A DNA stretch of 64,000 bases, taken from the NCBI GenBank assembly GCA_030431775.1, contig JAUIHW010000001.1, forward strand, positions 3,246 to 67,245, written 5' to 3'. The notes under the pieces are model-generated. The model had not been told where the DNA came from and searched no databases. It saw only the letters and a list, made by a program, of their open reading frames with translations. A program made the position numbers and the translations under genes. Shown here piece by piece: positions 6,236 through 28,146 of this stretch. Within the stretch, counting starts at the first letter, position 1; every line of letters starts with the position of its first letter. Origin of the DNA: Gammaproteobacteria bacterium (GTDB lineage Bacteria > Pseudomonadota > Gammaproteobacteria > Pseudomonadales > JAUIET01).

Positions 6236-6244
6236 ACCCGCTCA

Positions 6245-8005
6245 TCAGGCTTTGTACAGCGGTTGCAGGTCAACCGGGCGTTTCGGCTTGCGGTGCTGCT
6301 GACCTTGTTCGACCGCCCGCTTCAGGGCAGCCAGTATTTCCGGCCCGTTGATGTTGCCCGCTCGCTCCGGTTGATACAGAGCCTCGTCCAGGTTTTTCAG
6401 GCTGGCGCTGAGGGCGGCATCATCGAAGTAGGCGCTGATGGATGCCAGCGAACTCAATGAGGGTTTACCGGTGTGCGCTCGAGCCCAGTTGATCAGCGCT
6501 GCGCGAATGGCAGACGGCTGGTTGCCGCTGCAGGCCTGCTCTAACTCTTTCATTGATGCGCGCGGTTTGCCCGGTACAAGCGGTGCCGAAATCGGGCCTT
6601 TGCTCTGACGAAGCCACAGCGCATAGCCCAGTGTTGCCAGCCACAGCAGCACCGCCAGCCAGGTTGTGGTTCGCCATACGGAACTCACGCCAATACGGTT
6701 TTGTAGGGGGGCTTGCTGCTCTGGAGCCTGTGCCGACTGCTTGCTTGCAGGTGCTACCTGGCTTTGGGTTGCCGGCGTGCTGGGTATGGGCGTACCGGCA
6801 ACCTTCAATGTGCGTGCGGGAATGACGGCAACTTCTTCGCGATTGCTTTGGGTATTCCACCAGGGCAGCCGCACCTCGGGTATTCTCAGTTCACCCGTTG
6901 TGGCGATGATGGCTTCACTCTCAATGCGGGTGCCCGTGACGCCCATTGAGCTGTCTTCATCAGCGGTTTCCGCCTGGTCCGGGTATTGCTGGGCGCCTGG
7001 AATTTCACCAATGTTCAACGGCGGCAGCTGGCTGGCCTGCTGGCCTCGGGCTTCCACGATCAATGTGCGGGTGAGCGGTTCGCCAACCTTGATACTGTCC
7101 AGGTCTTTACTCCAGTTCTCAATAATGCTGACCTGTTCCGCCGGCAGCCAGTGCTGCCCGCTGAATTGTGCAGCGCGAGGAGTGACCTCTACCGCATGGA
7201 TTTCAGAACGCACTCTGATCGGGCGCCCTCGCGACAGGCTGCCAAAGTTGTCGAACAGTGAGCCACTGCGTCTTCCAGTGGACAGGTTGGCACTGAAGGT
7301 GAGGGCCGGTATTTCCAAAGTACCGCTGCGTTGCGGGAAAATCGCATACTTCACTTCGTGCACGTTGTAGTTCATGTTATTCAGCCGGGTCTCATAGGCT
7401 GATTCGTTAAGTTGTTTCACAACCGCATTGGGCACCTCGAGCTCACTCAGCTGGGCGCCGCGGCTCAGTGCAACACCGTAATAAATTCTGACTGTGAGAA
7501 TCAGCTGTTGCTGTACATAGAGTGACTCGCTATCGACCTCCGACTGCATGAACACCGGCTCAAAGCCGCCACTTTGTTGGCTGATTTTACTGGCAGACAC
7601 TTCGACCACCAGCGCCTGGGTGGTTTCGCCATCGATTTCAATCGGTGGAATCACCAGGGCGCCTTCGCGTTTCGGCGCCAGGCTGATGTGCCATTCCATC
7701 GACGATTGAGTGCGGCCATTGATGATGCTGTGCTGACTGTTGCGGCTGGTGCCGAGAATTTCGAAGTCCTTTTCCAGTGCCGTCAGGTCGGGGCTGTCGA
7801 ATATCGACATTTTTGTACTGCTTAGAATCAAGGTAAAGCTGTCATCCACGCTGATTTGCTGGCGGTCGGTGCGCGCAGTTACCTCGGCCAGACCGGCGGC
7901 GGACCAGAGCAGGGTGCTCAGGCACACCGCCAGGGCGATTAGCCAGCGTTCAATACAGGCTGCCTTCTTTGTCATAGTGTTTTCTTCTGCGGCGATTCTG
8001 TTCAT
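6245..8005 (-). CDS. BatD-like protein
   Basis: Signal peptide, repeated Ig-like BatD modules and a C-terminal TM helix; last gene of a MoxR/VWA operon. Confidence 0.8.
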   Translation of the reverse strand: MNRIAAEENTMTKKAACIERWLIALAVCLSTLLWSAAGLAEVTARTDRQQISVDDSFTLILSSTKMSIFDSPDLTALEKDFEILGTSRNSQHSIINGRTQSSMEWHISLAPKREGALVIPPIEIDGETTQALVVEVSASKISQQSGGFEPVFMQSEVDSESLYVQQQLILTVRIYYGVALSRGAQLSELEVPNAVVKQLNESAYETRLNNMNYNVHEVKYAIFPQRSGTLEIPALTFSANLSTGRRSGSLFDNFGSLSRGRPIRVRSEIHAVEVTPRAAQFSGQHWLPAEQVSIIENWSKDLDSIKVGEPLTRTLIVEARGQQASQLPPLNIGEIPGAQQYPDQAETADEDSSMGVTGTRIESEAIIATTGELRIPEVRLPWWNTQSNREEVAVIPARTLKVAGTPIPSTPATQSQVAPASKQSAQAPEQQAPLQNRIGVSSVWRTTTWLAVLLWLATLGYALWLRQSKGPISAPLVPGKPRASMKELEQACSGNQPSAIRAALINWARAHTGKPSLSSLASISAYFDDAALSASLKNLDEALYQPERAGNINGPEILAALKRAVEQGQQHRKPKRPVDLQPLYKA

Positions 8006-9758
8006 ATTGGTATCGAAATTTGTTTTTCAACAGGCCGCCCGGATCGTCCGGCACTTTTCGCAGCCATTGTTCCAGTTCCTGCTGACGTTCGCTATCGGGT
8101 TTTGCCTGGGCCTGCGCGCTCTGTGGTTCACCGTCCTCCTGGGGTTCAGTCGGTGGGGGTGTTTGTTCGTTCTCAGCGTGTTCCTGCGGCTGATCTTGCG
8201 ACTCTTTGTTGTCGGAGTTTTCTTGCGGATTCTGTTGCGGATTTTCCTGGCTGGACGGTTGTTCCTTGTCTTGCCCTGCGTTTTGTTCCTGATTCTCTTG
8301 TTGCTGTTGCTGTTGCTGTTGGTTTTGGTTTTGTTGTTCTTGGTTCTGGTCGTTGTTCTGCGGCTGCTCGCTGTCCTGGTTGTTTTGGTTTTGCTGGTTC
8401 TGTTGCTGTTGTTGCTGCAACTCTTCCAGCAGCTTTTTATTGAAGGCGGCGTCTTCATGTTCTGGATTCGCCGCCAGAACTTCGTCGTAGGCGGCAATGG
8501 CGCCCTGCAGATCGCCGGCTTTTGCCAGGGCATTGCCGCGGTTGTAAGCATTCTGTTCGCCGAACAGCTCACCGGCCTGTTCATAGTCGCCGGCCCGATA
8601 AGCGGCGCTGGCTTTCCATTGCCGGTTACGGAACAGTTTCTGAGCCTGTTCGGCGTCACCCGCGCTCAAGGCCTGTTGCGCTTGCTGGTCGCGGGTTTGC
8701 CACAGGTCGGCCCACCAGCTGCCGCCGTCATCAGCGTGGGCGGGTGGGGGGAGAACGCCGATCAGCAATAAGGGCAGTAGCAAGCCGCGCCGAAAACCCA
8801 ACAAACAAAAAGGCAACAGCAGCAAAACCAGCACCGCACCCTCATCGTGCCAGACGTCAAACTCACGCTCGCTGTCGCGAATCTCCAGGTCAAGCAGTTG
8901 GTCTGGCAGCAGACGGTCAATGTCCTGGCGGCTGGCGGTCAGTGGCGAGTAGCGCCCGCCCAGCTGGCTGCTGATTGATTGCAGACCCGGCTCATCCAGT
9001 TGGGCGACAATAATCTCGCCGCTGGCGTCCTTGAGGAAACCTCCTTCGGGCAATGGAATCGGGCTGCCTTCCGGGGTGCCCACGCCCAGCACGGACAGTG
9101 CCATGCCTGGCCCGAGCGCGTCTTGCAGGGCGTCGAGCTGATCGGCTTGAATGCCATCTGTCACCAATAGAACCCGGGCCTTGCTGAGCTGAGCGTCGCT
9201 GAGTAACTGTTGTCCCAGCGCGAGCGCGTACTCCGGGCGGCTGCCCAGCTTGGGCATGATTTCCGGTTGCAGTGCCGGCAGCATGGACTCGATGGTGCGC
9301 GCGTCATCAGTGAACGGGGCCACGGTATGCGCGTCACCGGCATACACGATCAGTGCGGTCAGGCCTTCTTCCCGTTCGGCCAACACGTCGCGCAGTTTCA
9401 ACTGAGCCCGCTCAACCCGGCTGGGGCTGATGTCATTGGCCCGCATCGACAGCGACAGGTCCAGAACAATCAGCAACGCGTCCTCTTTTTGAGCCACCGC
9501 CTGTGGCAGACGATGCCAGGCCGGTCCGGCCAGCGCGAGAATTGCGAGCAGTAAGGCAGCGGCCAGGCACAGCAATGGCCAGCGCTGTTGCGTGCCCTGC
9601 TCGCGGTCCAGCAGGTGGTCCAGCAAACCGGGGTCGATAACTGCTTGCCATGACGAGCTGGTGAGTTGGCGGCGCCACAGTAGCCAACAGATGATGGCGG
9701 CCAGCGGCAGCAACAGCAGCCATTCCGGGCGAAGAAAGTGAAACTGATCAATTGCCAC
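7950..9758 (-). CDS. VWA + TPR domain protein (BatB/BatC-like) with Q/N-rich linker
   Basis: MIDAS motif DLSLS, VTDG, TPR (YNRGNALAK...AIAAY), poly-Q tract and C-terminal EQWLR.VPDDPGGLL.NKF. Confidence 0.85.
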   Translation of the reverse strand: MAIDQFHFLRPEWLLLLPLAAIICWLLWRRQLTSSSWQAVIDPGLLDHLLDREQGTQQRWPLLCLAAALLLAILALAGPAWHRLPQAVAQKEDALLIVLDLSLSMRANDISPSRVERAQLKLRDVLAEREEGLTALIVYAGDAHTVAPFTDDARTIESMLPALQPEIMPKLGSRPEYALALGQQLLSDAQLSKARVLLVTDGIQADQLDALQDALGPGMALSVLGVGTPEGSPIPLPEGGFLKDASGEIIVAQLDEPGLQSISSQLGGRYSPLTASRQDIDRLLPDQLLDLEIRDSEREFDVWHDEGAVLVLLLLPFCLLGFRRGLLLPLLLIGVLPPPAHADDGGSWWADLWQTRDQQAQQALSAGDAEQAQKLFRNRQWKASAAYRAGDYEQAGELFGEQNAYNRGNALAKAGDLQGAIAAYDEVLAANPEHEDAAFNKKLLEELQQQQQQNQQNQNNQDSEQPQNNDQNQEQQNQNQQQQQQQQENQEQNAGQDKEQPSSQENPQQNPQENSDNKESQDQPQEHAENEQTPPPTEPQEDGEPQSAQAQAKPDSERQQELEQWLRKVPDDPGGLLKNKFRYQYEQNRRRRKHYDKEGSLY

Positions 9759-18328: not shown

Positions 18329-20539
18329 ATGACTGCAGTCCATCATCCGCCTTTTAAACTGTTTCTCAGCTGTCCGCGCTATTTAGAAGAATTGTTAGAC
18401 TCTGAGTTGCAGCAATTGGGCTTGCCTTTGACCCGGCGCCGGCTCGGCGGCGTTGAACTTGAAACCGACCTGGCGGGTGTTTACCAGGTTTGTCTCTGGT
18501 CACGACTGGCGAGTCGAGTGTTGCTGCAGTTGCTCAGCAGCCGGGTGAGCAGTGTGGATGATGTATATCGGGCTGTCGCGGCCATCAATTGGCCGGAAAC
18601 CTTTGCCCACAGCAACGACGCTCAGCCAGTGAGTTTTGTGGTGGACTTTGTTGGAACATCAGGGGCGATTCGCAACAGCCAGTACGGTGCGCAACTGGTC
18701 AAAGATGCGATAGTCGACCGTTATTCAGCTGGCCAACGACCATCCGTGGACCGGCAAAACCCCGGCCTGCGAATTAACGCTCATCTTGCCAGGGGGCGGC
18801 TGAGTGTAGCGCTTGATCTCAGCGGCGACAGCCTGCATCGGCGCGGTTATCGTGGGAGCGGCGGTGCCGCACCGCTTAAGGAAAACCTCGCTGCTGCGAT
18901 TGTGCAGCGCAGTGGGTGGCCGGCGCTGTTGAACGAAGCGGGTCAACAGCCGGCGACCGTCATGCTCGATCCCTTGTGTGGTTCGGGCACATTGCTGCTG
19001 GAAGCGGCCATACTGGCAAGCGACACAGCGCCTGGCTTGCTGCGTTCTCGCTGGGGCTTTGAGGGTTGGGCCTTGCATCGTCCTGAGCTTTGGCAAACCG
19101 CACTATTAGCCGCCAGTGAACGCCATGCCCGGGGGGTGGAGACTGCTCGGCAGCAGAACATTCGCTTTTTCGGCTTCGACCGCAATGCACCATTGCTTGA
19201 ACAAGCCCGGCAGAGCGCAGCGCGTCTGGACCTGGCCGAGCTGTTTGAGTTGCTTCCGGCTGAGCTTGCCAAACTAGCCAACCCGTTGGCCGATCGGCCG
19301 GGCCACCGCGGCCTGTTGCTGACCAACCCACCGTATGGTGAGCGAATTGGCCAGGACCAGGACTTGTCAGCGTTGTACGCAGGCCTGGGCGCCAGCCTGA
19401 AAAACGACTTCGCCAACTGGCGCGCTGCGGTACTGTCTGATGATGAAGCGCTGTTAGATGCTCTGCGGCTTAGAGTGGACAAACAGTATCGCTTTCGAAA
19501 CGGCCCGCTTGACTGCCAGTTGCGCACTTATGGGATTGCGGCGCAGCGACCTGCGGGTGCTGGGGCCAAGCGAGTGGGCGAACCGACGAAGGTAAGTGCG
19601 CACGCCGACATCAATGATGAGTTGGCCAATCGCCTGCGTAAAAATCGCAAGCGATTGCGCCCGGCAATAAAGCGTTATCAGAGTAATTGCTTTCGACTGT
19701 ACGATGCTGACCTGCCGGAATTCAATTCGACGGTGGACTGTTATGCGGACCATGTGGTGATTACTGAACGGGCTGCACCGGACACGGTAGACGCTGCCAG
19801 GGTGGCGATGCGCACCCGACAAACCCTGGCTACCGTGGCAGAGGTGCTGGCCTGCAGCAGCGAGCGGCTGCACTACAAGAAAAAGCAACCCCAGAAAGGC
19901 AAAACGCAGTACAGCCGCACGGGGCAGGGCAGCGAGCGGCTGTCAGTGAATGAAGCCGGGGCCAGGTATCTGGTTAACCTGCGAGACTATCATGATACCG
20001 GGCTGTTTCTGGACCACCGTGGGGTGCGCCGCCTTATTCGTGAAATGGCTGCTGGCAAGCACTTTCTGAACCTGTTCTGTTATACCGCTGCGGCGACGGT
20101 CAGTGCAGCGCTGGGCGGTGCGTCCGCGAGCACCAGCGTGGACCTGTCAAGGCCCTACCTGTCGTGGGCGGCGGATAACCTGGCTTGCAATCAACTGGAT
20201 CAGCGGCGCCATGAGCTGGTGCAAGCGGACTGCCAGCAGTGGCTGGCCGAGTGCCGGCAACAATTCGATCTTATTCTTCTGGATCCGCCTTCTTTCTCAA
20301 ATTCGAAACGAATGGAAACGGTGCTGGACATACAGCGTGATCATGCGCTGCTGATCCGGCAATGCCTGGCTCTGTTGAGCAGCCAGGGCACGCTGGTTTT
20401 TTCAACCAACCGTCGCAAGTTTCGGCTTGATCAGACACTGCAGGACGAGTGTACGCTGCAGGAAGTGACCGAGCGTACCTTGGATGCGGACTTTCAACGG
20501 CCGCCGCCGGCACATCGTTGCTGGTTGATAAGCAAATAA
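18329..20539 (+). CDS. rlmKL: Bifunctional 23S rRNA m2G2445/m7G2069 methyltransferase
   Basis: THUMP region, SLHRRGYR..APLKENLAAA, DPLCGSGT, NPPYGER; second MTase domain with DTGLFLDHR, LNLFCYT and DPPSFSNSK. Confidence 0.93.
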   Translation: MTAVHHPPFKLFLSCPRYLEELLDSELQQLGLPLTRRRLGGVELETDLAGVYQVCLWSRLASRVLLQLLSSRVSSVDDVYRAVAAINWPETFAHSNDAQPVSFVVDFVGTSGAIRNSQYGAQLVKDAIVDRYSAGQRPSVDRQNPGLRINAHLARGRLSVALDLSGDSLHRRGYRGSGGAAPLKENLAAAIVQRSGWPALLNEAGQQPATVMLDPLCGSGTLLLEAAILASDTAPGLLRSRWGFEGWALHRPELWQTALLAASERHARGVETARQQNIRFFGFDRNAPLLEQARQSAARLDLAELFELLPAELAKLANPLADRPGHRGLLLTNPPYGERIGQDQDLSALYAGLGASLKNDFANWRAAVLSDDEALLDALRLRVDKQYRFRNGPLDCQLRTYGIAAQRPAGAGAKRVGEPTKVSAHADINDELANRLRKNRKRLRPAIKRYQSNCFRLYDADLPEFNSTVDCYADHVVITERAAPDTVDAARVAMRTRQTLATVAEVLACSSERLHYKKKQPQKGKTQYSRTGQGSERLSVNEAGARYLVNLRDYHDTGLFLDHRGVRRLIREMAAGKHFLNLFCYTAAATVSAALGGASASTSVDLSRPYLSWAADNLACNQLDQRRHELVQADCQQWLAECRQQFDLILLDPPSFSNSKRMETVLDIQRDHALLIRQCLALLSSQGTLVFSTNRRKFRLDQTLQDECTLQEVTERTLDADFQRPPPAHRCWLISK

Positions 20540-20574
20540 AAAAAGGGTAGGCAGGCGCGCAAAACGGCGCCTGC
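20537..20574 (-). terminator. Likely intrinsic terminator between convergent genes
   Basis: Stem gcaggcgc/gcgcctgc (20551-20574) with a nearby A-run that reads as a U-tract on the - strand. Confidence 0.45.
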
Positions 20575-20587
20575 TGCACCAGACTGC

Positions 20588-20959
20588 TTAGTTGCTTTTC
20601 GCCTTGAATGCGGTCATGGATTCTTTCCATTCACCGGCTACGGTTTGCATTTCATCAACCATTTCATTATGGGTTTTTATGCGCTCGGCATTCTGTGCCT
20701 GAGCCGCCGCCATTGCTTCCTCATCGTCTTTGTCGATTGCCGCAATGGTTGATTTTTCCGCTTCTTCCAGGCAGGCGATGAACTCGTCTCCCGCCGCAAC
20801 ATAGGCTTTTACGGCCGTCTGGCCTTCGACCATCTGTTCCATGGTTGACTCCGCGCCATTGGGTACGGTCGGACGATCAGGCCGCTCGCAGTCGGCCCAG
20901 CTTAGAGTACTGGCAGAGCTTAAACACACGGCCATTAGGAACTTGTCGATTTTTTGCAT
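20588..20959 (-). CDS. Secreted helical hypothetical protein
   Basis: Signal peptide ending SWA-D, two Cys in the mature part, GGAG RBS. Confidence 0.7.
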   Translation of the reverse strand: MQKIDKFLMAVCLSSASTLSWADCERPDRPTVPNGAESTMEQMVEGQTAVKAYVAAGDEFIACLEEAEKSTIAAIDKDDEEAMAAAQAQNAERIKTHNEMVDEMQTVAGEWKESMTAFKAKSN

Positions 20960-21135
20960 GGATCTCACTCCGCATTTGATTCACCGTAAGGATACTGATC
21001 ATTGCCTGTTCTGCAAAGCCTTGCCGTGCAAACCTTCGTAAATTGCCTGTTTCAGGTTCAGCGCTGATTCAGCCAGCGGCGCCTAGCCTGAGACTGTGTT
21101 CAGCATTGGGTGGCGTGGCCACTAAGAGAGGAAGT

Positions 21136-21447
21136 ATGAGAACGCAGATAGCGATACTGGCTTTGTCGGTGGCCGCGGCTGGGCTGTCCCTGCCGGTGGC
21201 AGCGCACTACGACAGTGGGGTGGCATTTCGGATCAGCGTGCATTCAGGCTATGACCACCACCGGCCACATAAACAAACCTACCGGCATGGGCGGCGCGGC
21301 CATCACGGCCACTATATTCATCGCCACGATCGATACTGCCCGGACTACCGAGCGCATCGGCAGGTTCGCAAGGCGCACCGCTACCTGCACTATCGGCCGA
21401 GTGAAATATACCTGCAGTATGGCTATGAGCGCCGCTATCGACACTGA
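21136..21447 (+). CDS. Small secreted His/Arg/Tyr-rich protein
   Basis: RBS gagagg, signal peptide MRTQIAILALSVAAAGLSLPVAA and a low-complexity H/R/Y tail. Confidence 0.6.
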   Translation: MRTQIAILALSVAAAGLSLPVAAHYDSGVAFRISVHSGYDHHRPHKQTYRHGRRGHHGHYIHRHDRYCPDYRAHRQVRKAHRYLHYRPSEIYLQYGYERRYRH

Positions 21448-21573
21448 GGTAACGCCTTAAGGAGTGTTCGGTTCACCGAAGGCCCGGATGATGCCCGGGC
21501 CCTGTGTACTCCGGGCAATACACCCGGCTTTTGGGTGGGTTCGATGGCTTTTCTGTTCAGTGCACAAAGCTGC

Positions 21574-21601
21574 TTGAATTCCGCCTGCGCTTATGTACAA
21601 T
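21574..21601 (+). promoter_or_regulatory. Sigma70-type promoter for tRNA-Glu
   Basis: TTGAAT-16 nt-TACAAT followed by a GC-rich discriminator, about 40 nt upstream of the tRNA. Confidence 0.6.
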
Positions 21602-21642
21602 ACCGCCTTCTTTTTTGGCGCTCATAGTTGACGCTTCGCTGC

Positions 21643-21718
21643 GTCCCCTTCGTCTAGTGGCCTAGGACACCGCCCTTTCACGGCGGTAACAGGGGTTCGA
21701 ACCCCCTAGGGGACGCCA
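21643..21718 (+). tRNA. tRNA-Glu (anticodon TTC)
   Basis: GTCCCCT/AGGGGAC acceptor stem, anticodon arm CCGCC-CTTTCAC-GGCGG, GGTTCGAA T-loop and encoded CCA; 76 nt. Confidence 0.97.
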
Positions 21719-21726
21719 TTTCTCTT

Positions 21727-21812
21727 CTTTTCCGGGGAAAATCTTTTCCGGGGACAGTTTACCTAACTCCAGCCCTTGGGGCTTTTCCGGGGACAGTATA
21801 CCTAACTCCAGC
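21727..21812 (+). repeat. Tandem copies of the RAYT-element end sequence
   Basis: CTTTTCCGGGG (21727-21737), then CTTTTCCGGGGACAGTTTACCTAACTCCAGC at 21743-21773 and again at 21782-21812 with one mismatch. Confidence 0.9.
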
Positions 21813-21919
21813 GTTCGGCAGTTCGGCCACCAAAGATCTCGTCTTCACGCTCAAGTCAGTTGGCGGCAGAGCACCCTGTGGATGAAATGTAAAACAACCC
21901 GCTTTACAGAACACAGGCG

Positions 21920-23278
21920 CTATTTCAGTCCGAGTTCGGCACACTGTGTGTTTATCCACTTGGCGTAGCCAAGATCGCCCAGCCCCGAAGGTGGATAACA
22001 GGCCGTGATGGGCCAGGTGGGGTTGTTCCGACAGGGCTCGTGGCGATCACAAAAGTAGGAATACACGGCGTTCGCGCCACCACCGTTGTCCTTACCGTTT
22101 GCGCCGGCAGAATAGATCCAGCGGCGATCTTGCGAATAGCCCAATTTCTTTCGGGAAAAGGGGTCTATGGGGAGAGCAGCGATAAAGCCGGGCGTTAGTT
22201 CAGCCAGCGTTTCCGGGAGTGACTGCTGTGATATTCGGTAGCGTTCCAGCACGACCAGAGTCAACACCGCGGATACATTGCTGTTCAGGTAACACCAATC
22301 TTCAACATATCGGGAGTAATGGATGGTTCCGGATAGGTAGCGTTCTCCATAGTCGTTGGGCAGGAGTGGGGCATAAAAGGGACGATTCTCAGCTGCCCGG
22401 GAAGGAACCAAGTCTTTTTTATCATTCGTGCAGGTTGAAAGCGTAGAGCTTCTGAGCGCAACCAGTTCGCGTGCATACCGGCTGAACGTGGTATTGGCAT
22501 GAAATGTGTAGCGGTACCACAGTCGATAGGGCCAGGCTTTGATGCGGGCGTTGCTCATCGATTTTCTTTGTTGTTCAGAAAATTCGTAGGCAAACTTGAA
22601 TTCACCTGCAAAAGTCTCTCTCATTCCGTCCTGCTGTCCTTTTGGTAGCTGCTCAAGCTCCTTCTGCAAGCGCCTTAACTGCCGGTCGTTTAGCAGCCGT
22701 TCACTGGTAAGTTGGTGAATGGCTTGCAGCACATACTCTTTTCCAGTAGCACCTATTTGATAACTCATAAGGGTATGGTTTTGTTCCGATTGGATGCGGT
22801 GCGCAAACTGCAGGCTCGCCTCTAGGCGTGAAACAGCGCGGTTCTGCTCGCCGGACTTGGCCAAGGCCATCGCGCTCATGACAAGCGATTTAAGCATATG
22901 CAATAGCTCGCTGTAGGCAGATTCTTTGGGTGTGAAAGGAAGAGGCAGCTGAAAAGAGTCACTCCTGTTCACTTTCTGCACCACATCGAAATAACGAGAG
23001 TCAATAGCCTGCCTGCTTAGTATTGCGACAGAATCTATTTCACTCGTCGAGAAGCGACCTATCGCCGACCCTGCAGCGTTTTCAAGGTCTTGCGTGAGGT
23101 CCGGCAGTATTGCCAGAACATGGCGGTAGCTGTTCGCTGCATCTGGTATATCGGGAACCTCGGCAAGCAGGCCGGCATCATCCAGCATGGCTTGGTCCCT
23201 GTCACCCAATAACAGAATGGTGCAGGCGAGTAGCATCACGATCAACAAAGGTAAGAAGAGTTTGCGAATTAAACTCAC
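21920..23278 (-). CDS. Membrane-anchored hypothetical protein with a GspG-C-terminus-like tail (putative cargo)
   Basis: N-terminal hydrophobic helix; C-terminal LPETLAEL...PIDPFS...YSAGANGKDNGG resembles a pseudopilin G C-terminal motif; appears more AT-rich than the core genes. Confidence 0.65.
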   Translation of the reverse strand: MSLIRKLFLPLLIVMLLACTILLLGDRDQAMLDDAGLLAEVPDIPDAANSYRHVLAILPDLTQDLENAAGSAIGRFSTSEIDSVAILSRQAIDSRYFDVVQKVNRSDSFQLPLPFTPKESAYSELLHMLKSLVMSAMALAKSGEQNRAVSRLEASLQFAHRIQSEQNHTLMSYQIGATGKEYVLQAIHQLTSERLLNDRQLRRLQKELEQLPKGQQDGMRETFAGEFKFAYEFSEQQRKSMSNARIKAWPYRLWYRYTFHANTTFSRYARELVALRSSTLSTCTNDKKDLVPSRAAENRPFYAPLLPNDYGERYLSGTIHYSRYVEDWCYLNSNVSAVLTLVVLERYRISQQSLPETLAELTPGFIAALPIDPFSRKKLGYSQDRRWIYSAGANGKDNGGGANAVYSYFCDRHEPCRNNPTWPITACYPPSGLGDLGYAKWINTQCAELGLK

Positions 23279-23293
23279 GCTCTAAATTCCGTA

Positions 23294-24061
23294 AATTCCG
23301 GGGACAGTTTACCTAACTCCAGCCCTTGGCCCAGGCTTCTTATGCTTGAGAGTTCTTCCGGTCATATCCTCCAGGTGATCTATGAACCTATCGCCTCCAG
23401 CGGGGCGACCCGTCCTAGAATGTAGCCGAATTCGCTCGGTAAGGTCGCCGTTTTGATCAGAGGCGAGGTATGCGTGCCAGTTGCCAATACGTTTCAACAT
23501 GGGACTTACGCTGACAACGCCATCATCCTGTCGTTCAATATGCGCTCTAGCGCTAGACCACTCCCAATCAGCCGCGGTTAAGCATAAGCCTGCGCGGACT
23601 GGATTCCGCTCTGTGTATCGAACCGTTGCGAGTAAGTAGCTCTCATCCATCACAAATGAATGAAACCGCTCTTGCCACAAATGGCCTCGCCAGTTCATTC
23701 TGAAGTTAATGCGCCTGGTATAGTGACGATGTACGTGGCGAAAAAGCTGTGCCAAGCTCTCCTTGCTTTCCGGGACTACCACCAGATGAACATGGTTTGG
23801 CATAAGGCAATACGCCCAAACCTCTACTCCGACGTCATCTTTGGCATCCCTAAGCAACTCCAGGTAGAACCGATAATCGTCCCTGTTATAAAAGGTTTTC
23901 ATTCTGCGGTTGCCGCGTTGGGTTACATGGTGAGGGTAACCCGGAACAACCAGTCGTGGCATCCTTGCCATGGTAACTCTCCGTGTATTGTAGACAGATT
24001 TTAAGTGATCACTTCCAAGGATAAATCAAGTGGGGTGGTTAGGTAAACTGTCCCCGGAATT
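23294..24061. mobile_element. RAYT/Y1-transposase element with perfect 24-bp terminal inverted repeats
   Basis: AATTCCGGGGACAGTTTACCTAAC (23294-23317) and its reverse complement GTTAGGTAAACTGTCCCCGGAATT (24038-24061) enclose the transposase gene. Confidence 0.8.
23309..23971 (-). CDS. REP-associated tyrosine transposase (RAYT, IS200-like Y1 HUH superfamily)
   Basis: HHVTQRGNRR, AYCLMPNHVHL (HUH), GHLWQERF, catalytic Y in RYTERNPVRAG and WSS; RBS ggagag. Confidence 0.92.
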   Translation of the reverse strand: MARMPRLVVPGYPHHVTQRGNRRMKTFYNRDDYRFYLELLRDAKDDVGVEVWAYCLMPNHVHLVVVPESKESLAQLFRHVHRHYTRRINFRMNWRGHLWQERFHSFVMDESYLLATVRYTERNPVRAGLCLTAADWEWSSARAHIERQDDGVVSVSPMLKRIGNWHAYLASDQNGDLTERIRLHSRTGRPAGGDRFIDHLEDMTGRTLKHKKPGPRAGVR

Positions 24062-24086
24062 GCCCCGGAATTGCACCCCGGAATTG
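24052..24086 (+). repeat. Stuttered CCCCGGAATTG x3 at the outer end of the element
   Basis: ccccggaattg-ccccggaattg-ca-ccccggaattg. Confidence 0.85.
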
Positions 24087-24087
24087 A

Positions 24088-24516
24088 TCACAGGGTTGCG
24101 CGCACTGCGTTCACAGCTAATACAAAAAGGCAGATTGTGCTGAGCAGGAAAAATAGAAAGCGTATCGGGATGGTGTTCACCAGTGACTGCCACAGGCTGT
24201 GCAGAATCCGAAACGCGACGTAGCCCCAGGCCAGCATAACATTGGTGTCAGTGCCCGCGCCTGCCAGAGAGAGAACTGCGATAACTGCATAGAACAGCGT
24301 GGGTTGTTCCATCAGGTGGTTGAAGTTGTGGGCTTTCCAGTTGACCTCTGGAGGCATGGCGCTTTCCACGTCAACGTAGCGACCGCCTGGTGGGGCGGAC
24401 TGCAGGTCAATACCTGCTTTTTTGAAGGCCGGGAAGCGGGTAAACACTACCCAAAGCAGCATAAGCAGTGACCAGAGAATCAGTACGGCGGCGGGCGCCA
24501 ACAGCGATTGAGTCAT
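24088..24516 (-). CDS. MAPEG family membrane protein
   Basis: NFNHLMEQPTLFY and R.LHS motifs, four TM helices. Confidence 0.85.
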   Translation of the reverse strand: MTQSLLAPAAVLILWSLLMLLWVVFTRFPAFKKAGIDLQSAPPGGRYVDVESAMPPEVNWKAHNFNHLMEQPTLFYAVIAVLSLAGAGTDTNVMLAWGYVAFRILHSLWQSLVNTIPIRFLFFLLSTICLFVLAVNAVRATL

Positions 24517-24564
24517 TATTGTTCTCCCAGTGGATCAGGATGCCAAGCATACCAGCAGTAGTCA

Positions 24565-25593
24565 CTATTCGCGCACAATCGATTGGTAAAGTTCGATGTG
24601 CATTTTTGCAGAGACCTTGGGTGAAAAACGTTCAAGCCCGGCCAATGCTGTGTCGGCAAGCTGCGCGCCCAGTTCGGGAGTGGCTGCCAGGCGGGTAATC
24701 GCTGTGAGTAATGCCGGCTCATCGCCAGGGGGTGTGAGCAGGCCGTTGTGCTCGTGTTGAATGATGTCGGGAATGCCTCCAGTATCGCTGGCAACAATGG
24801 GAACACCGGCTTGAATAACATCCAGCAGGCTGGAGCCCAGACCTTCTCGCAATGACGGAAACACAAACAGATCCAATGCAGCCAGATAACTGCCGACGTC
24901 CTGCTGGAAGCCCAGAAATTCAACGTGGGGCAGGTCTGCGCTGCGTTGTAAAAACCACTCACGATCGCTGCCGGTGCCGAGAAAAATAATATGTACGTTG
25001 GGAATGCGTTCTTTTAGCTGCCGGGCAATATTCAGCAGATGAATCTGTCCTTTATCAACGTTCTCCAATGCACCCACGTTGCCAATCAGAAATTTACCCT
25101 GATAACGTTGTTTGATTTCGCTCAAAGTAGTCGGGTTCACTTCCAGGCTGGCATAGCAGCTCGGGATGCGAATGATGCGGTCAGTAAATCCACTGACAGC
25201 CCGCTCGACCGCGCTGGAAATCGCCACTACCTGGCTGGCCCTGGACAGAGTCTGTCGGTTCAGGTAGTGGTCTCCGGGCTTTTTCATGACGCGCCGGGTC
25301 AGCACATAGGGAATACCAAAACGACGATGGGCGAGGTGCGCGAGCCACGCGCCCTTGGCTTCGTGCGCATGAATCAGGTCAATGCCACTGAACCAGCGCT
25401 TGCGCGCAAGCAGCGGGTGTTTTACCGCAACGGTGTTTAACCCGGCTGCCCGAGCCTTTTGCTCCACCGGCAAACCGGCTCGCAGAATGACCCGCTGTTG
25501 CTGCCCCAAGGCGGCGAGTTCGGACATCAACAGCAGTGACTGTCGTTCACCACCGCGAAAACTCTTGGCGACATTGATGTGACAAATGTTCAC
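24565..25593 (-). CDS. Glycosyltransferase family 4
   Basis: FRGGERQ, and FVFPSLREGLGSSLLD...VASDTGGIPDII. Confidence 0.88.
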   Translation of the reverse strand: MNICHINVAKSFRGGERQSLLLMSELAALGQQQRVILRAGLPVEQKARAAGLNTVAVKHPLLARKRWFSGIDLIHAHEAKGAWLAHLAHRRFGIPYVLTRRVMKKPGDHYLNRQTLSRASQVVAISSAVERAVSGFTDRIIRIPSCYASLEVNPTTLSEIKQRYQGKFLIGNVGALENVDKGQIHLLNIARQLKERIPNVHIIFLGTGSDREWFLQRSADLPHVEFLGFQQDVGSYLAALDLFVFPSLREGLGSSLLDVIQAGVPIVASDTGGIPDIIQHEHNGLLTPPGDEPALLTAITRLAATPELGAQLADTALAGLERFSPKVSAKMHIELYQSIVRE

Positions 25594-25645
25594 GTTGTTT
25601 TCTGCTGATTGGCGGGCCGCTGAAGCAGGCTGCGAAAATGGGCAA

Positions 25646-26941
25646 TCAGTCGATATAACGGTTTAGCATTACCGCGATCAGCTTGCTGCGGGCGACCAAC
25701 GACTGCAAGGTGCTGGATTCGCGCGAAGAGTGAGCGCCTTTTCCGTCCAGACCCAGGCTGTCCATGGTAGGCAGCCCGGCGGCCTGCGCAATCGAACCGT
25801 CGGTACCGCCCCCCGCAAACTGAGTGCCGGTAATCGGCTCGCCCAGTAACTGGGACAGGCCCATTGCTTCGCTGATCAGTGCATCCACCGTAGCGTTCTG
25901 TTCTTTAACAGGCCGGTGCAGGCGAGTCCAGACGTCGATCTGAGGTACGCCTGGGTGGCGTGGGTTGGACGTGGTCGCACTGCCGGCAATGCGGCGAATG
26001 CTGCTTTCCAGGTATTGCCCATCTGCAGCAGTGGGGTAACGCATATCGATGTAGGCATCGGCACAACCGGAAATGGTGTTGCGCTTCTCACCTCCTTGCA
26101 TAGTGCCGACATTGACACTGATCTTACGCTCGTAGTCTGTAAGCTGCTCGATGGCAACTACTTTGTGTGCCATTTCCAGATTGGCCGATACACCTTGTTC
26201 GTGTGCACCGCCGGCATGTGATTCCCGACCGGTAATCTTCAAGCGCGCCTGGCCCAGCCCTTTGCGGGCTCGCGTGACCCGATGATTGTGAGAGGACTCG
26301 AATACAAAGCCCAGGTCGTTTTGGCGGGCCAGTTTTTCGATCAACGCACGCGAGCCCAGAGAGCCAATTTCCTCATCGCTGTTGAATAATACTGTCAGGT
26401 TGGCGTTCTCCAGCCGCTGCTCGGCTTCCAGCGCGCGCAGCGCAAACAGCAGGGCCACGATGCCACCTTTCATGTCCGCCACCCCCGGGCCATGCAGAGT
26501 GCCGTCGTCGTGAACCGTGAGGGTCTGGAACTCATCGTCCGGGGAAAACACCGTGTCCATATGGCCATTCAGAAACAGCTTGCGCTTGCTTTTGCCGGAG
26601 CGCTTGCCAAGCAGGTGTTTGGCAAATTGCATTTGCCCACCCTCACAGGTCAGAATGTCGACAGGCTCGCTGTCGTGTTCACTCGTGGTGAAGCCCAAAC
26701 TCTGCAGTTCCCCGGCCAGCAGGGTGCGGTAGGCATCCAGCCCGGGAATGTTGTCGGTGCCGGTATTCATGCCGACGTGTTGCTTAAGCTCGGAAAGCAT
26801 ATCCGCTTCGCGCTGGTCCAGCCAGGCTGCCAAACGCTGCTCCTGGGCTGTCAGCGTGGTGCTGGTGGGCTGCAGTTCGTCGGCCTGCAGCACGGCCGCC
26901 GCCAGCAGGCTGGCAGTAAGCAATAACACTGTTCGAATCAT
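25646..26941 (-). CDS. Secreted M20 metallopeptidase (carboxypeptidase G2-like)
   Basis: Signal peptide; GHMDTV, GPGVADMKGG, SDEEIGS, HAG, GGTDG and AHS motifs. Confidence 0.88.
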   Translation of the reverse strand: MIRTVLLLTASLLAAAVLQADELQPTSTTLTAQEQRLAAWLDQREADMLSELKQHVGMNTGTDNIPGLDAYRTLLAGELQSLGFTTSEHDSEPVDILTCEGGQMQFAKHLLGKRSGKSKRKLFLNGHMDTVFSPDDEFQTLTVHDDGTLHGPGVADMKGGIVALLFALRALEAEQRLENANLTVLFNSDEEIGSLGSRALIEKLARQNDLGFVFESSHNHRVTRARKGLGQARLKITGRESHAGGAHEQGVSANLEMAHKVVAIEQLTDYERKISVNVGTMQGGEKRNTISGCADAYIDMRYPTAADGQYLESSIRRIAGSATTSNPRHPGVPQIDVWTRLHRPVKEQNATVDALISEAMGLSQLLGEPITGTQFAGGGTDGSIAQAAGLPTMDSLGLDGKGAHSSRESSTLQSLVARSKLIAVMLNRYID

Positions 26942-27057
26942 AGGGGTCTCGCAACACTCAGTAGGCAGTGCGCTAGATTACTGGCTGTCCAGGCAAAATG
27001 CCAGCGACTCAAACCGACGGATATGATATAAAAATTCAAAAAAATGATTAGGGGCTG

Positions 27058-28146
27058 ATGCGCATACTGCTGGTAACCACCGATATTGATCATATCGAGC
27101 CTTTACAGTTTATTGGCGCGCAAGATAAGGGTGCCACTGTGGAAGTAATTTGCAGCCCGCGTTGCATTAACCTGGAATTGTTTGAGCAGGCCGCTATACC
27201 GGTACACAAAATGCATATTCATGGCTGGCGAAATCGCGCGGTGGTCGGCCAGCTGAAACAGCACATCGAGCGTTTCCAGCCGGATATTGTGCATGTGCTG
27301 CGCAAACCCGCGCTGCTGCACATCATTCCTGCGCTACGTGGCAGCAAGGCCAAACTGATTGCTTACCGCGGTATTGTCGGGAATCTCAGCTTTCTGGACC
27401 CCAAGTCGCTGCTGAGCTTTCTTCATCCAAGAGTGGACTGCATCGTGTGCGTGGCAGACGCCATTCGACAGCATTTTCTGCGCATGGGTTTTGGTCCTCT
27501 GCGGCTTGATCCGAGCAAACTGGTTACCATTTACAAGGGGCACAGTCTGGCGCGCTATCAGGAGGTGGCGCGCATTGATGTCAGTCAGTTCGGTGTACCG
27601 ATTGGTCCTGCCATCATTGGTTTTTGCGGCGCCATGCGTCCGCGTAAAGGCGTGGATATTTTGGTTGAAGCGTTTGGCCTGATGCAAAACCGCAGCTCGG
27701 TATTGCTATTGGTCGGTGACATCACAGCACCACGGATTACCAAGGCAATACGAAACAGCCCGCGTCAGGATGCGATTTTCTGCGCGGGGCGCGTGTCCCA
27801 GGCCGATGCCTTGGCACTGAATGGCCGCTTTGATGTGACGACCATGCCGTCGCTGAAGCGTGAGGGCCTGCCACGAGCGCTGATTGAGGCAATGGCGCAA
27901 GGCACTCCGGCGGTTGTCAGTAATGTGGGCGGAAGCCCGGAGTTGGTGGAACACGGTGTCAGCGGTCTGGTGGTACCGCCGGGGGACGCGCCTGCGCTGG
28001 CACAGGCGCTCGACCGCATTCTGGAAAAGCACACCTTACAAACCATGGGTGAGGCCGCACGCCAGCGCATTGCCAGCCAATTCAATGTGCGCACAACAGT
28101 TGAGCAGAACTGGGCGCTTTACCAGAGGTTGCTGAGTCATTCCTAA
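27058..28146 (+). CDS. Glycosyltransferase family 4
   Basis: RPRKG, and PSLKREGLPRALIEAMA.G.P.V.SNVGGSPELV. Confidence 0.88.
   Translation: MRILLVTTDIDHIEPLQFIGAQDKGATVEVICSPRCINLELFEQAAIPVHKMHIHGWRNRAVVGQLKQHIERFQPDIVHVLRKPALLHIIPALRGSKAKLIAYRGIVGNLSFLDPKSLLSFLHPRVDCIVCVADAIRQHFLRMGFGPLRLDPSKLVTIYKGHSLARYQEVARIDVSQFGVPIGPAIIGFCGAMRPRKGVDILVEAFGLMQNRSSVLLLVGDITAPRITKAIRNSPRQDAIFCAGRVSQADALALNGRFDVTTMPSLKREGLPRALIEAMAQGTPAVVSNVGGSPELVEHGVSGLVVPPGDAPALAQALDRILEKHTLQTMGEAARQRIASQFNVRTTVEQNWALYQRLLSHS

Follow-up and report, generated by a model that had tools for sequence, protein, structure and literature searches.

Organization of the repeats and genes next to tRNA-Glu

A gene for a RAYT-like transposase and a gene for a 452-aa protein were found in the same orientation between tRNA-Glu and a MAPEG gene in the window (the whole stretch of DNA analyzed, 64,000 nt). 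Copies of one terminal inverted repeat (TIR) lie on both sides of each gene. The features are as follows, in window coordinates.

21643..21718, + strand: tRNA-Glu (anticodon TTC), called by ARAGORN, 27 nt before the outermost TIR copy
21730..21745, no strand assigned: partial copy of the TIR tip, TTCCGGGG, with spacer, directly outside the outermost TIR copy, found by eye in the sequence
21746..21779, - strand: R2, solo full-length copy of the right-end TIR, 34/34 identical to R1
21785..21818, - strand: R3, solo copy of the right-end TIR, 88% identical to R1, in tandem with R2 at a period of 39 nt
21920..23278, - strand: gene for the 452-aa protein, with an N-terminal signal or anchor helix, a helical-repeat body and a small Cys-containing C-terminal beta part
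23296..23329, - strand: R1, true right-end TIR of the element, overlapping the transposase gene over its final 7 codons and stop
23309..23971, - strand: intact gene for a TIRYT, a RAYT-like Y1 HUH transposase of 220 aa with H60-V-H62, Y119 and a C-terminal extension of about 80 aa
24027..24061, + strand: left-end TIR, an inverted copy, its core 55 nt upstream of the transposase ATG
24063..24086, no strand assigned: the TIR tip, CCCCGGAATTG, repeated twice more in tandem beyond the left end and ending 1 nt short of the MAPEG stop codon (24088)

A repeat search of the 64-kb window recovered the 34-nt direct repeat at 21746-21779 and 23296-23329 with 100% identity, as an earlier note on this DNA had described. 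The third direct copy was 88% identical to 23296-23329; the note had seen this near-copy and ended it at 21812, and it extends to 21818. The search also returned the inverted 35-nt arm at 24027-24061, 86% complementary to 23294-23328. An 18-nt core, GGGGACAGTTTACCTAAC, was present four times in the window with up to 3 mismatches (expected 0.02), and 0 of 100 shuffled sequences gave four. This core starts GGGGACAG and matches the published GGGG[AT][CG]A[CG] motif (GGGGWSAS). The TIR ends did not fold into a hairpin, with z-scores of -0.85 to +0.74 against shuffles.

The transposase ORF ends in ...PRAGVR* with its stop codon inside R1, bearing out the earlier reading that the repeat encodes the end of this gene, and the same 3' overlap was found in a homologous locus (L062). 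The repeat is the right end of the element and the extra copies are full-length right-end copies, also as the note had proposed. Sequence inspection placed a degenerate outer tip repeat at R1 and another at R2, and tip reiteration like that at 21730-21745 also occurs at the left end and in loci of the family. The TIR-to-ATG spacing of about 54 nt recurred in many family loci. R2 matches R1 in the inner third as well, the part that differs in the left end and in dimers elsewhere in the genome, making R2 and R3 local, recent derivatives of the R1 end and not random dispersed copies. No second left-type end was detected between R1 and R3, even at up to 4 mismatches.

The transposase is a RAYT-like Y1 HUH enzyme

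The transposase matched Pfam Y1_Tnp (E 2.7e-14) and aligned to E. coli TnpArep (4ER8, E 7.2e-6) with the HUH motif and the tyrosine in register, in agreement with the enzyme type named in the earlier note. It scored 77.8 bits against NCBIfam REP_Tyr_transpos (cut-off 80) and 22.8 bits against the NCBIfam IS200 model NF033573 (cut-off 55). Its last 82 residues gave no Pfam match at E <= 1. The C-terminal extension is conserved, with matches of relatives reaching residues 206-220 in 80 loci. The closest relatives were 66% identical among genome contigs and 67% among metagenome contigs, too distant to reveal a second site of this same element. A plasmid search with the transposase matched 29 records, every one below 60% identity, and the nearest relative in the genus (G004, 58% identity) has just the gene between its two TIRs. 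A 17-nt TIR core is conserved in relatives of 51-67% identity from many phyla; this spread of identities suggests horizontal transfer rather than long domestication.

Judged by its sequence, the element is a TIRtron encoding a TIRYT, a described class of small mobile elements in which a RAYT-like transposase gene lies between inverted repeats. According to Di Nocera 2013 (PMC3733652), TIRtron TIRs carry the GGGGWSAS motif, occur as singles, dimers and groups, and overlap the gene 3' end; the motif and a description of the TIRs are also given in Quentin et al. 2018 (PMC6006769). The element studied here likewise encodes a RAYT-like Y1 HUH protein that is longer than classical RAYTs and has non-palindromic TIRs with this motif, the right one overlapping the gene 3' end, which form a small genomic repeat family of singles, dimers and groups. 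The class is probably subclass 2.1 TnpA(REP) of Quentin et al. 2018 (PMC6006769), although a C-terminal HTH is given there for that subclass and no Pfam HTH was found in the C-terminal 82 residues here. The two full-length right-end copies past the next gene also set the locus apart, as no such description was found for TIRtrons in the parts of these sources at hand.

A single-copy Y1 gene flanked by repeats that are thought to spread in trans is a likeness to REPtrons and RAYT-REP(IN) systems. RAYT-REP(IN) systems are reportedly the subject of Nunvar 2010 and Bertels & Rainey 2011. In the E. coli REPtron the number of REPs on the 3' side varies and 'local amplification' was proposed in Ton-Hoang et al. 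2012 (PMC3333891), which together with inverted doublets elsewhere in the genome resembles what was found here. REPtron REPs are palindromes of 20-40 nt with a GTAG-type tag and a high copy number, whereas the repeats here have neither hairpin nor GTAG tag and number in the tens, not hundreds, with 13 close copies in 4.67 Mb. IS200/IS605 elements share the Y1 HUH chemistry, the one catalytic Tyr and the small size, but have subterminal hairpins and no TIRs, whereas the element here has TIRs and no tnpB and falls short of the IS200 model. The likeness to an integron cassette, in that a promoterless gene in the same orientation precedes a repeat, is superficial: the locus has no IntI-type recombinase, attI, attC hairpin or cassette array, and the repeat is the transposon's own end.

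A real and foreign-looking 452-aa gene

The 452-aa gene is real and its product is a secreted helical-repeat protein of a family without a name, lying outside the canonical element. Its GTG start is 17 nt past R1 and its stop 101 nt before R3, close to the 15 and 105 bp given in the earlier note, and no promoter-like or terminator-like site was seen at the junction with R1. An alternative gene call starts at Met15 (P0001, 438 aa) and leaves about 60 nt after R1; the GTG start was preferred because it yields a normal signal or anchor sequence. The protein had no match in Pfam or NCBIfam. A word-based search for close relatives returned only the protein itself, while 3525 distant relatives were found, the best at 29% identity. 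The family alignment has 13 invariant columns, 4 of them Cys. The AF2 model (pLDDT 85.4) had no PDB fold match at E <= 0.001 by Foldseek.

The gene was not found in any of the 8 other genomes of the bacterial family, nor was its protein family in any of the 399 other scored genomes of the class at E <= 1e-10 (1 further genome was unscored). The earlier note had counted occurrence of the gene at this locus without repeats in relatives against its own model; the gene was not found in relatives. Its GC content is 0.519, close to the 0.517 of the transposase gene, and the neighbors are higher at 0.55-0.59. By its absence from relatives and its GC, like the transposase's and below that of its neighbors, the gene is foreign-looking. 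No second copy of the gene, or of the 2.3-kb block from the left TIR to R2, was found in the same genome. Of 80 homologous transposase loci, at most 1 had the protein family nearby, a weak match upstream of the transposase (L111).

The site is variable in the genus

The 3' side of tRNA-Glu is a synteny breakpoint in the genus. In all 5 congeners, which are about 67-75% identical in coding DNA, divergence began about 10 nt after the tRNA and both the transposase gene and the 452-aa gene were missing at the site. With synteny broken right after tRNA-Glu in 5/5, no empty site could be reconstructed from these genomes. The block from the left TIR to R2 takes up all of the space from tRNA-Glu to the MAPEG stop codon, and the variable region past tRNA-Glu extends beyond this 2.3-kb block to about position 27270 of the window. 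The Y1 protein is the sole recombinase between tRNA-Glu and MAPEG. Logan contigs of 4 runs, 2 of them from studies shared with a possible source sample, showed no excision or circle joints when compared with 20000-26000; such contigs drop rare variants, and the result speaks neither for nor against excision.

TIR copies are dispersed in the genome and around homologous transposases

Allowing up to 2 mismatches, the TIR core was found 13 times in this genome (4.67 Mb), in both single and dimeric form, and a control pattern was found 0 times. Nine of the 13 copies lie outside this locus, including three tight inverted dimers. The copies are in local excess, with 2 spare ones within 1.6 kb of the element against the 9 in the remaining 4.67 Mb. 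MITE-like elements of about 115 bp with looser TIR variants were also present, and on C26 a 290-aa gene lies between two of them, each of 115 bp and sharing one orientation. A congener carries this 290-aa gene at 75% nucleotide identity, and the match stops short of the MITEs.

We surveyed 160 homologous loci, counting exact duplicate loci once. Proximal TIRs were detected with four family core variants at up to 3 mismatches and distal copies with locus-specific cores at up to 2 mismatches; the counts cover loci with a recognizable proximal TIR, and diverged distal copies will be missed. A proximal TIR was recognized in 140 of the 160 loci, from many phyla, and both ends in 107. More than one proximal right-end copy was present in 19/140 loci, with 2-3 copies within about 200 nt, and more than one left-end copy in 22/140. 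All distal copies counted together were downstream in the same orientation in 20 cases and in the opposite one in 17, and upstream in 12 and 10, respectively. Solo copies gave 10 and 8 downstream and 11 and 9 upstream. Among loci with at least 3 kb downstream, a solo copy 0.4-3 kb away was in the same orientation in 4/70 and in the opposite orientation in 4/70; among those with at least 3 kb of upstream flank the counts were 3/64 and 5/64. Distal spare copies had no side or orientation bias in the testable loci.

The survey contained two clean look-alikes (L094 and L170) with one unrelated gene between right-end copies, in both on the strand opposite to the transposase. No surveyed locus had an ordered same-orientation repeat array with one gene each at the right end, and the array in L063 consists of inverted dimers. 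Only 4/160 loci had any tRNA gene within 400 bp. A possible two-copy element with cargo in one MAG (L070/L071) was rejected as not being TIR-bounded transposition: it is a 3459-bp duplication that begins 12 nt upstream of the ATG and extends as far as an IS110-like gene, and the left TIR is missing in one of the two copies.

Origin of the spare right-end copies

The earlier note had explained the locus as a capture system in which the Y1 enzyme inserts units of gene plus R at the right end, like an integron, with read-through expression from rayt. The order R-gene-R, with a co-oriented gene 17 nt after R1, fits such a system. Y1 HUH enzymes of the IS200/IS605 type cut one strand at two like sites and act by way of the single-strand circle so excised (PMC6006769), and L094 and L170 likewise hold one unrelated gene between right-end copies. 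However, the genes bracketed in these two loci run against the transposase, so expression by read-through is not common to such loci; the lack of preference for a side or an orientation among the 70 and 64 testable loci and the absence of any ordered array also argue against the model, as does the rarity of tRNA genes near the transposase. The note had expected variable genes to be recurrently bounded by same-orientation right-end repeats beside homologous transposases and had set genome-wide dispersal like that of ordinary REPs against its model; same-orientation copies were no more frequent than opposite ones, and the repeats are dispersed. Its IR-rayt-R unit is an element already described. 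What was observed, the enzyme and the right-end repeat hold, and the cassette-capture system at tRNA-Glu is not supported as a trait of the family; we consider it very improbable for this locus too. A single capture or co-mobilization of the 452-aa gene is possible, because the gene is missing from relatives rather than present in them without repeats. It is also improbable, if slightly less so than the note's model, that a tandem array R1-R3-R2 was split by a 1.5-kb gene piece, inserted by illegitimate recombination or by Campbell-type integration of a circle via one R. Right-end copies do cluster in this way in 19/140 family loci, and perfect 34-nt direct repeats around an insert are the expected trace of a single-crossover integration. 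However, R1 and R2 each resemble a complete end with its own outer tip repeat, 34 nt is close to the lower length limit of RecA recombination, and the source of the circle is not known.

We thought it unlikely, but worth weighing, that the TIRYT can use the outer right-end copy and that the transposon comprises, or formerly comprised, all 2.3 kb of the block, left TIR (24061) through R2 (21746), ending there and not at R1, with the 452-aa gene as passenger. Mobilization of adjacent DNA via an alternative distal end is the logic of IS91/ISCR (Y2 HUH) and ISEcp1, although these belong to other enzyme families (Y2 rolling-circle or DDE) and need no copy of the true end downstream, and there is no sign here that the block has moved. 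The block fills the entire gap between tRNA-Glu and the MAPEG stop, both genes are missing at the site in 5/5 congeners and are equal in GC, below the flanking genes, the 452-aa family was not found in the 399 class genomes, and R2 is identical to R1, all consistent with movement as a unit. Against this, the genome has no second copy of block or gene, the 452-aa family lies beside a homologous transposase in at most 1/80 loci, and the variable region runs past the block. In addition, outer ends in the same orientation do not outnumber those in the wrong one in the family, and the transposase has relatives at 66-67% against 29% for the gene's best, so a common donor cannot be shown.

The locus is probably a canonical TIRtron with spare right-end copies left by a scattering process, next to a 452-aa gene that is merely a neighbor. 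The TIRtron runs from 24061 to 23296 (about 770 bp), an intact TIRYT gene between 35-nt GGGGWSAS-type TIRs. R2 and R3 are solo right-TIR copies, which would have been set in the next intergenic gap by the process that scatters singles, dimers and MITE-like derivatives genome-wide. If TnpA(REP) and its REPs are a guide, this process would be copying in trans that depends on the transposase, with local amplification afterwards. The anatomy, the family membership, the dispersal of the repeat and the absence of a preferred direction among relatives are direct results, whereas the transposase as maker of the solo copies and the sequence of steps at this locus are inferred. The 452-aa gene would be an ordinary neighbor gene, seemingly enclosed by repeats because the intergenic gaps flanking it are the sole places where TIR copies can settle. 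The fit of the core to the TIRtron motif, the bare unit in G004, the multiple proximal and unbiased distal copies in relatives, the genome-wide dispersal, the gene-bracketing MITEs of C26, the lack of a second left-type end and the 3' REP variation of REPtrons all argue for the neighbor-gene reading. The 34/34 identity of R2 and R1, the foreign look of the 452-aa gene, its start 17 nt from R1 with no promoter-like site and the local copy excess count against it, and fit co-acquisition or capture at least as well.

TIRtrons have been little studied, and the locus offers a clean, intact one; in its family spare ends and tip reiterations are common, the spare ends without directional bias. To our knowledge, TIRtron transposition chemistry has been tested by nobody. 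Movement of the 2.3-kb block in one piece, which the present data do not show, would give the first indication that passenger genes can be carried by RAYT-like enzymes. If outer ends are used, spare TIR copies would be a route for the occasional pickup of neighboring genes, carried between phyla. On the neighbor-gene reading, transcription of the 452-aa gene may well come from read-through out of the co-oriented genes upstream of it, which encode a peptidase, a glycosyltransferase, MAPEG and the transposase.

Anatomy of the locus

The repeat search returned a single 34-nt direct-repeat family in the window, whose members are listed with the genes they accompany.

Features of the tRNA-Glu locus
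21643-21718, + strand: tRNA-Glu(TTC)
21746-21779: R2, spare right-end copy, 34-nt direct repeat, 100% identical to R1
21785-21818: R3, spare right-end copy, 34-nt direct-repeat family, 88%
21920-23278, - strand: 452-aa ORF, starting 17 nt past R1 and ending 101 nt short of R3
23296-23329: R1, right-end terminal inverted repeat (TIR), 34-nt direct repeat of the R2/R3 family
23309-23971, - strand: 220-aa transposase ORF, final codons and stop within R1
24027-24061: IR_L, left-end TIR, inverted arm of 35 nt, 86% complementary to R1
Stop at 24088, - strand, upstream: MAPEG gene, 1 nt outside the repeats
Upstream, - strand as the transposase: glycosyltransferase-like ORF and peptidase-like ORF

The repeats were thus as the earlier note had described them, including the overlap of R1 with the end of the transposase gene. 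The 18-nt TIR core occurred four times in the window at ≤3 mismatches (expected 0.02; 0/100 shuffles reached 4). R2 and R1 were identical at all 34 positions, among them the inner third, which is peculiar to this right end; R3 had this inner part too. A core search of the block from IR_L to R2 revealed no left end other than IR_L. The outer tip of the TIR (CCCCGGAATTG or TTCCGGGG) was tandemly reiterated two to three times just outside the element (24053-24086, 21730-21753 and 23287-23303), and the same reiteration was seen in distant family members (loci L064, L069, L086 and L094). These reiterations may be extra binding sites or the footprint of an end-processing reaction.

The element is a canonical TIRtron

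The 220-aa protein matched Pfam Y1_Tnp (E 2.7e-14). Its 77.8 bits on NCBIfam REP_Tyr_transpos fell slightly short of the 80-bit cut-off, and the IS200 model (cut-off 55) gave it only 22.8 bits. It aligned to E. coli TnpA(REP) (PDB 4ER8) with E 7.2e-6, placing H60-V-H62 on the HMH of 4ER8 and Y119 on a Tyr of its VDYIYINPV stretch. No hairpins were found at the element ends, where ssDNA folding was no better than that of shuffles (z -0.85 to +0.74).

In the portions of Di Nocera et al. 2013 (PMC3733652) consulted, RAYT-like genes flanked by TIRs are named TIRtrons and their proteins TIRYTs; the TIRs share the motif GGGGWSAS, overlap the gene 3' end and form families present as singles, dimers or groups. 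Quentin et al. 2018 (PMC6006769) assign most TIRYTs to their subclass 2.1, which comprises long proteins extended at the C-terminus by an HTH-like region. The unit at 24061-23296 (~770 bp) is a canonical TIRtron, because its TIR starts GGGGACAG, its right TIR overlaps the transposase gene and the transposase carries an extension of ~80 aa, although Pfam detected no HTH there. The nearest in-genus relative, in genome G004 (58% identity), was a bare TIR-gene-TIR unit. The element itself therefore belongs to a described type. No account of cargo carried by TIRtrons or REPtrons turned up in the open-access text searched, and neither 'passenger' nor 'additional orf' occurs in the REPtron paper (PMC3333891).

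The tRNA-Glu locus in congeners and metagenomes

The earlier note had proposed comparing this locus across relatives. The tRNA-Glu was kept in 5/5 congeners, with the upstream 126-aa gene in 5/5 and the 134-aa gene in 4/5. None of the five had the TIR core within 9-10 kb, even at ≤4 mismatches. All five diverged from this genome and from one another about 10 nt past the tRNA, making its 3' side (21719-27270) a synteny breakpoint in every congener. Because homology to G002 and G003 returned only near window position 27270, the variable stretch takes in the MAPEG, glycosyltransferase and peptidase genes too. Those three genes were at this tRNA-Glu only in this genome as compared with the five congeners, and MAPEG orthologues were at other sites in 4/5. 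The 134-aa ORF (21043-21447) has a signal-like N-terminus, a striking His/Arg/Tyr-rich tail and no Pfam match.

Contigs from four metagenome runs, two from studies shared with the possible source and two from other studies, contained identical pieces bridging the tRNA, R2, R3 and the end of the 452-aa gene (21692-22209), and others bridging the gene start, R1 and the transposase gene end (23250-23400). No joints were reported in these contigs, which drop rare variants.

The repeat elsewhere in the genome

The repeat was not confined to the locus. The TIR core occurred 13 times in the 4.67-Mb assembly at ≤2 mismatches (reversed control pattern, 0), four times here and nine times elsewhere: on contig C37, which carries two tight inverted dimers, on C105, which carries one, on C17 and C27, and at other sites on C87. 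The minimal inverted dimers (C37:73263-73309, C37:81512-81559 and C105:31715-31763) were ~47 nt long with a 3-5 nt loop between the arms, and the C37 dimers had the right-end type continuation CTCC on both arms. Looser variants included 115-bp TIR-bounded MITE-like elements, two of which, oriented alike (C26:56929-57040 and C26:58379-58490), flank a 290-aa gene. The congener G001 has this gene at 75% nucleotide identity in a match that ends at the ORF without covering the MITEs, so the repeat-gene-repeat picture on C26 arose by separate intergenic insertions around a resident gene.

The transposase gene had one full copy and the 452-aa gene was single-copy. A second, distant Y1 transposase-like match (C14:16125-16559; 37-38% identity over 145 residues) lay within a far longer open frame of 298 aa.

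The 452-aa gene

The 452-aa protein matched nothing in Pfam or NCBIfam, and a word-index search found only itself. Exhaustive HMMER searching returned 3525 representatives at E ≤ 0.001, of which 261 passed E ≤ 1e-10 and 23 passed E ≤ 1e-30; the best were ~450 aa long with 25-31% identity. Thirteen columns were invariant in an alignment of 31 sequences, and among them were four Cys and a PxDPF...Y-S-x-G...G block. The AF2 model (pLDDT 85.4, pTM 0.87) consisted of a helical-repeat body together with an N-terminal helix and a small region of beta structure; at E ≤ 0.001 it matched no fold in the PDB. The nearest ESM-Atlas clusters were unnamed and commonest in Verrucomicrobiota and Planctomycetota, one carrying T2SSG on 13% of its members. 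The family is sizeable and unnamed, lacks a Pfam model and has a pseudopilin-like C-terminal motif.

The family was not detected in 8/8 other genomes of the taxonomic family or, at E ≤ 1e-10, in any of the 399 further genomes scored in a sample of the class, one more being left unscored. GC content was 0.519 for the 452-aa gene and 0.517 for the transposase gene, against 0.543 for the genome and 0.55-0.59 for neighbouring genes. The gene is an intact, probably functional and foreign-looking accessory gene that was acquired horizontally.

Survey of homologous transposase loci

We confirmed 435 transposase relatives in genome_contigs and at least 577 in metagenome_contigs, and surveyed the best 80 of each (51-67% identity; 160 loci, exact duplicates counted once). 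A proximal TIR was recognisable at 140 of the 160 loci and both ends at 107; multiple proximal copies of the right end were present at 19/140 and of the left end at 22/140.

Distal TIR copies (>220 nt from the transposase gene)
Downstream, orientation as right end: 20 copies, 10 solo
Downstream, opposite orientation: 17 copies, 8 solo
Upstream, orientation as left end: 12 copies, 11 solo
Upstream, opposite orientation: 10 copies, 9 solo

Among loci with ≥3 kb of flank, solo copies 0.4-3 kb away were in the same orientation at four (L071, L086, L094 and L170) and opposite at four of 70 testable downstream flanks, and at three and five, respectively, of 64 upstream flanks. At L086 the outer copy was part of a second, gene-less TIR-bounded unit, and L070/L071 was a duplication without TIR bounds. 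Right-end copies enclosed one gene at L094 (589 aa) and one at L170 (599 aa), and both genes ran antiparallel to the transposase gene, which speaks against read-through expression as a shared feature. A tRNA gene lay ≤400 bp from the transposase at only 4/160 loci, always downstream and convergent. Of the 80 genome_contigs loci, only L111 had an ORF matching the 452-aa family profile; the match was weak (E 3.9e-12) and lay on the upstream side of the transposase. From the flank counts, individual loci and tRNA count, the window's arrangement is rare, occurs no more often than its mirror images and is unlinked to tRNA genes or read-through expression.

Origin of the repeat-gene-repeat arrangement

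We consider an ordinary TIRtron accompanied by solo ends the probable explanation. Elements of this type have been described before, the family habitually carries spare and reiterated ends, the repeat is dispersed over this genome, relatives show no directional bias, the block has no second left end, and contig C26 provides an independent case around a resident gene. Capture or co-mobilisation of the 452-aa gene would fit the R1/R2 identity with the right-end-specific part in R3 also, the local enrichment of spare copies (two within 1.6 kb against nine across the remaining genome), the foreign look of the gene with GC matching that of the transposase gene, and the 17-nt gap between R1 and the gene, in which a scan, weak evidence, saw no promoter-like or terminator-like site. 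On these grounds a compound element, with the 2.3-kb block from IR_L to R2 moving as one unit with its passenger, is conceivable though unlikely. The integron-like cassette system at tRNA-Glu first proposed finds no support in the four-to-four orientation count or in L086, L070/L071, L094 and L170, and we regard it as very improbable; a split array or Campbell-type insertion is only slightly less so.

In an equally simple history, MAPEG and the 452-aa gene would have been operon neighbours with a short spacer into which the TIRtron inserted: subtracting the element and tip repeats leaves ~20 nt from the MAPEG stop to the GTG at which the 452-aa gene begins.

Spread and arrays of the element family

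The surveyed relatives came from Gammaproteobacteria, Zetaproteobacteria, Alphaproteobacteria, Planctomycetota, Nitrospirota, Desulfobacterota-type and Dehalococcoidia MAGs. Relatives of 51-67% identity (L062-L232), drawn from Gammaproteobacteria, Zetaproteobacteria, Planctomycetota, Nitrospirota, Dehalococcoidia and others, retained the TIR core (GGGGACAGTATACCTA or GGGGACACCATACTTA) as well as the ~54-nt distance from the core to the start codon. Such conservation across many phyla argues for an active element family that has spread horizontally.

The L070 and L071 duplication (5989-9447; 3459 bp, 99.97% identity, inside one MAG) begins 12 nt before the transposase ATG, extends into an IS110-like gene and holds 103-nt tandem units with a TIR copy at the end of each. 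In one Proteobacteria MAG (L063:1800-6500) at least five inverted TIR dimers followed the transposase gene 0.75-2 kb apart, a dense array with intervening DNA stretches. Two Accumulibacter MAGs (L083:660-3200 and L102:550-5560) had several same-orientation left-type TIR copies spaced kilobases apart on the upstream side of the transposase gene, mirroring the window's arrangement.
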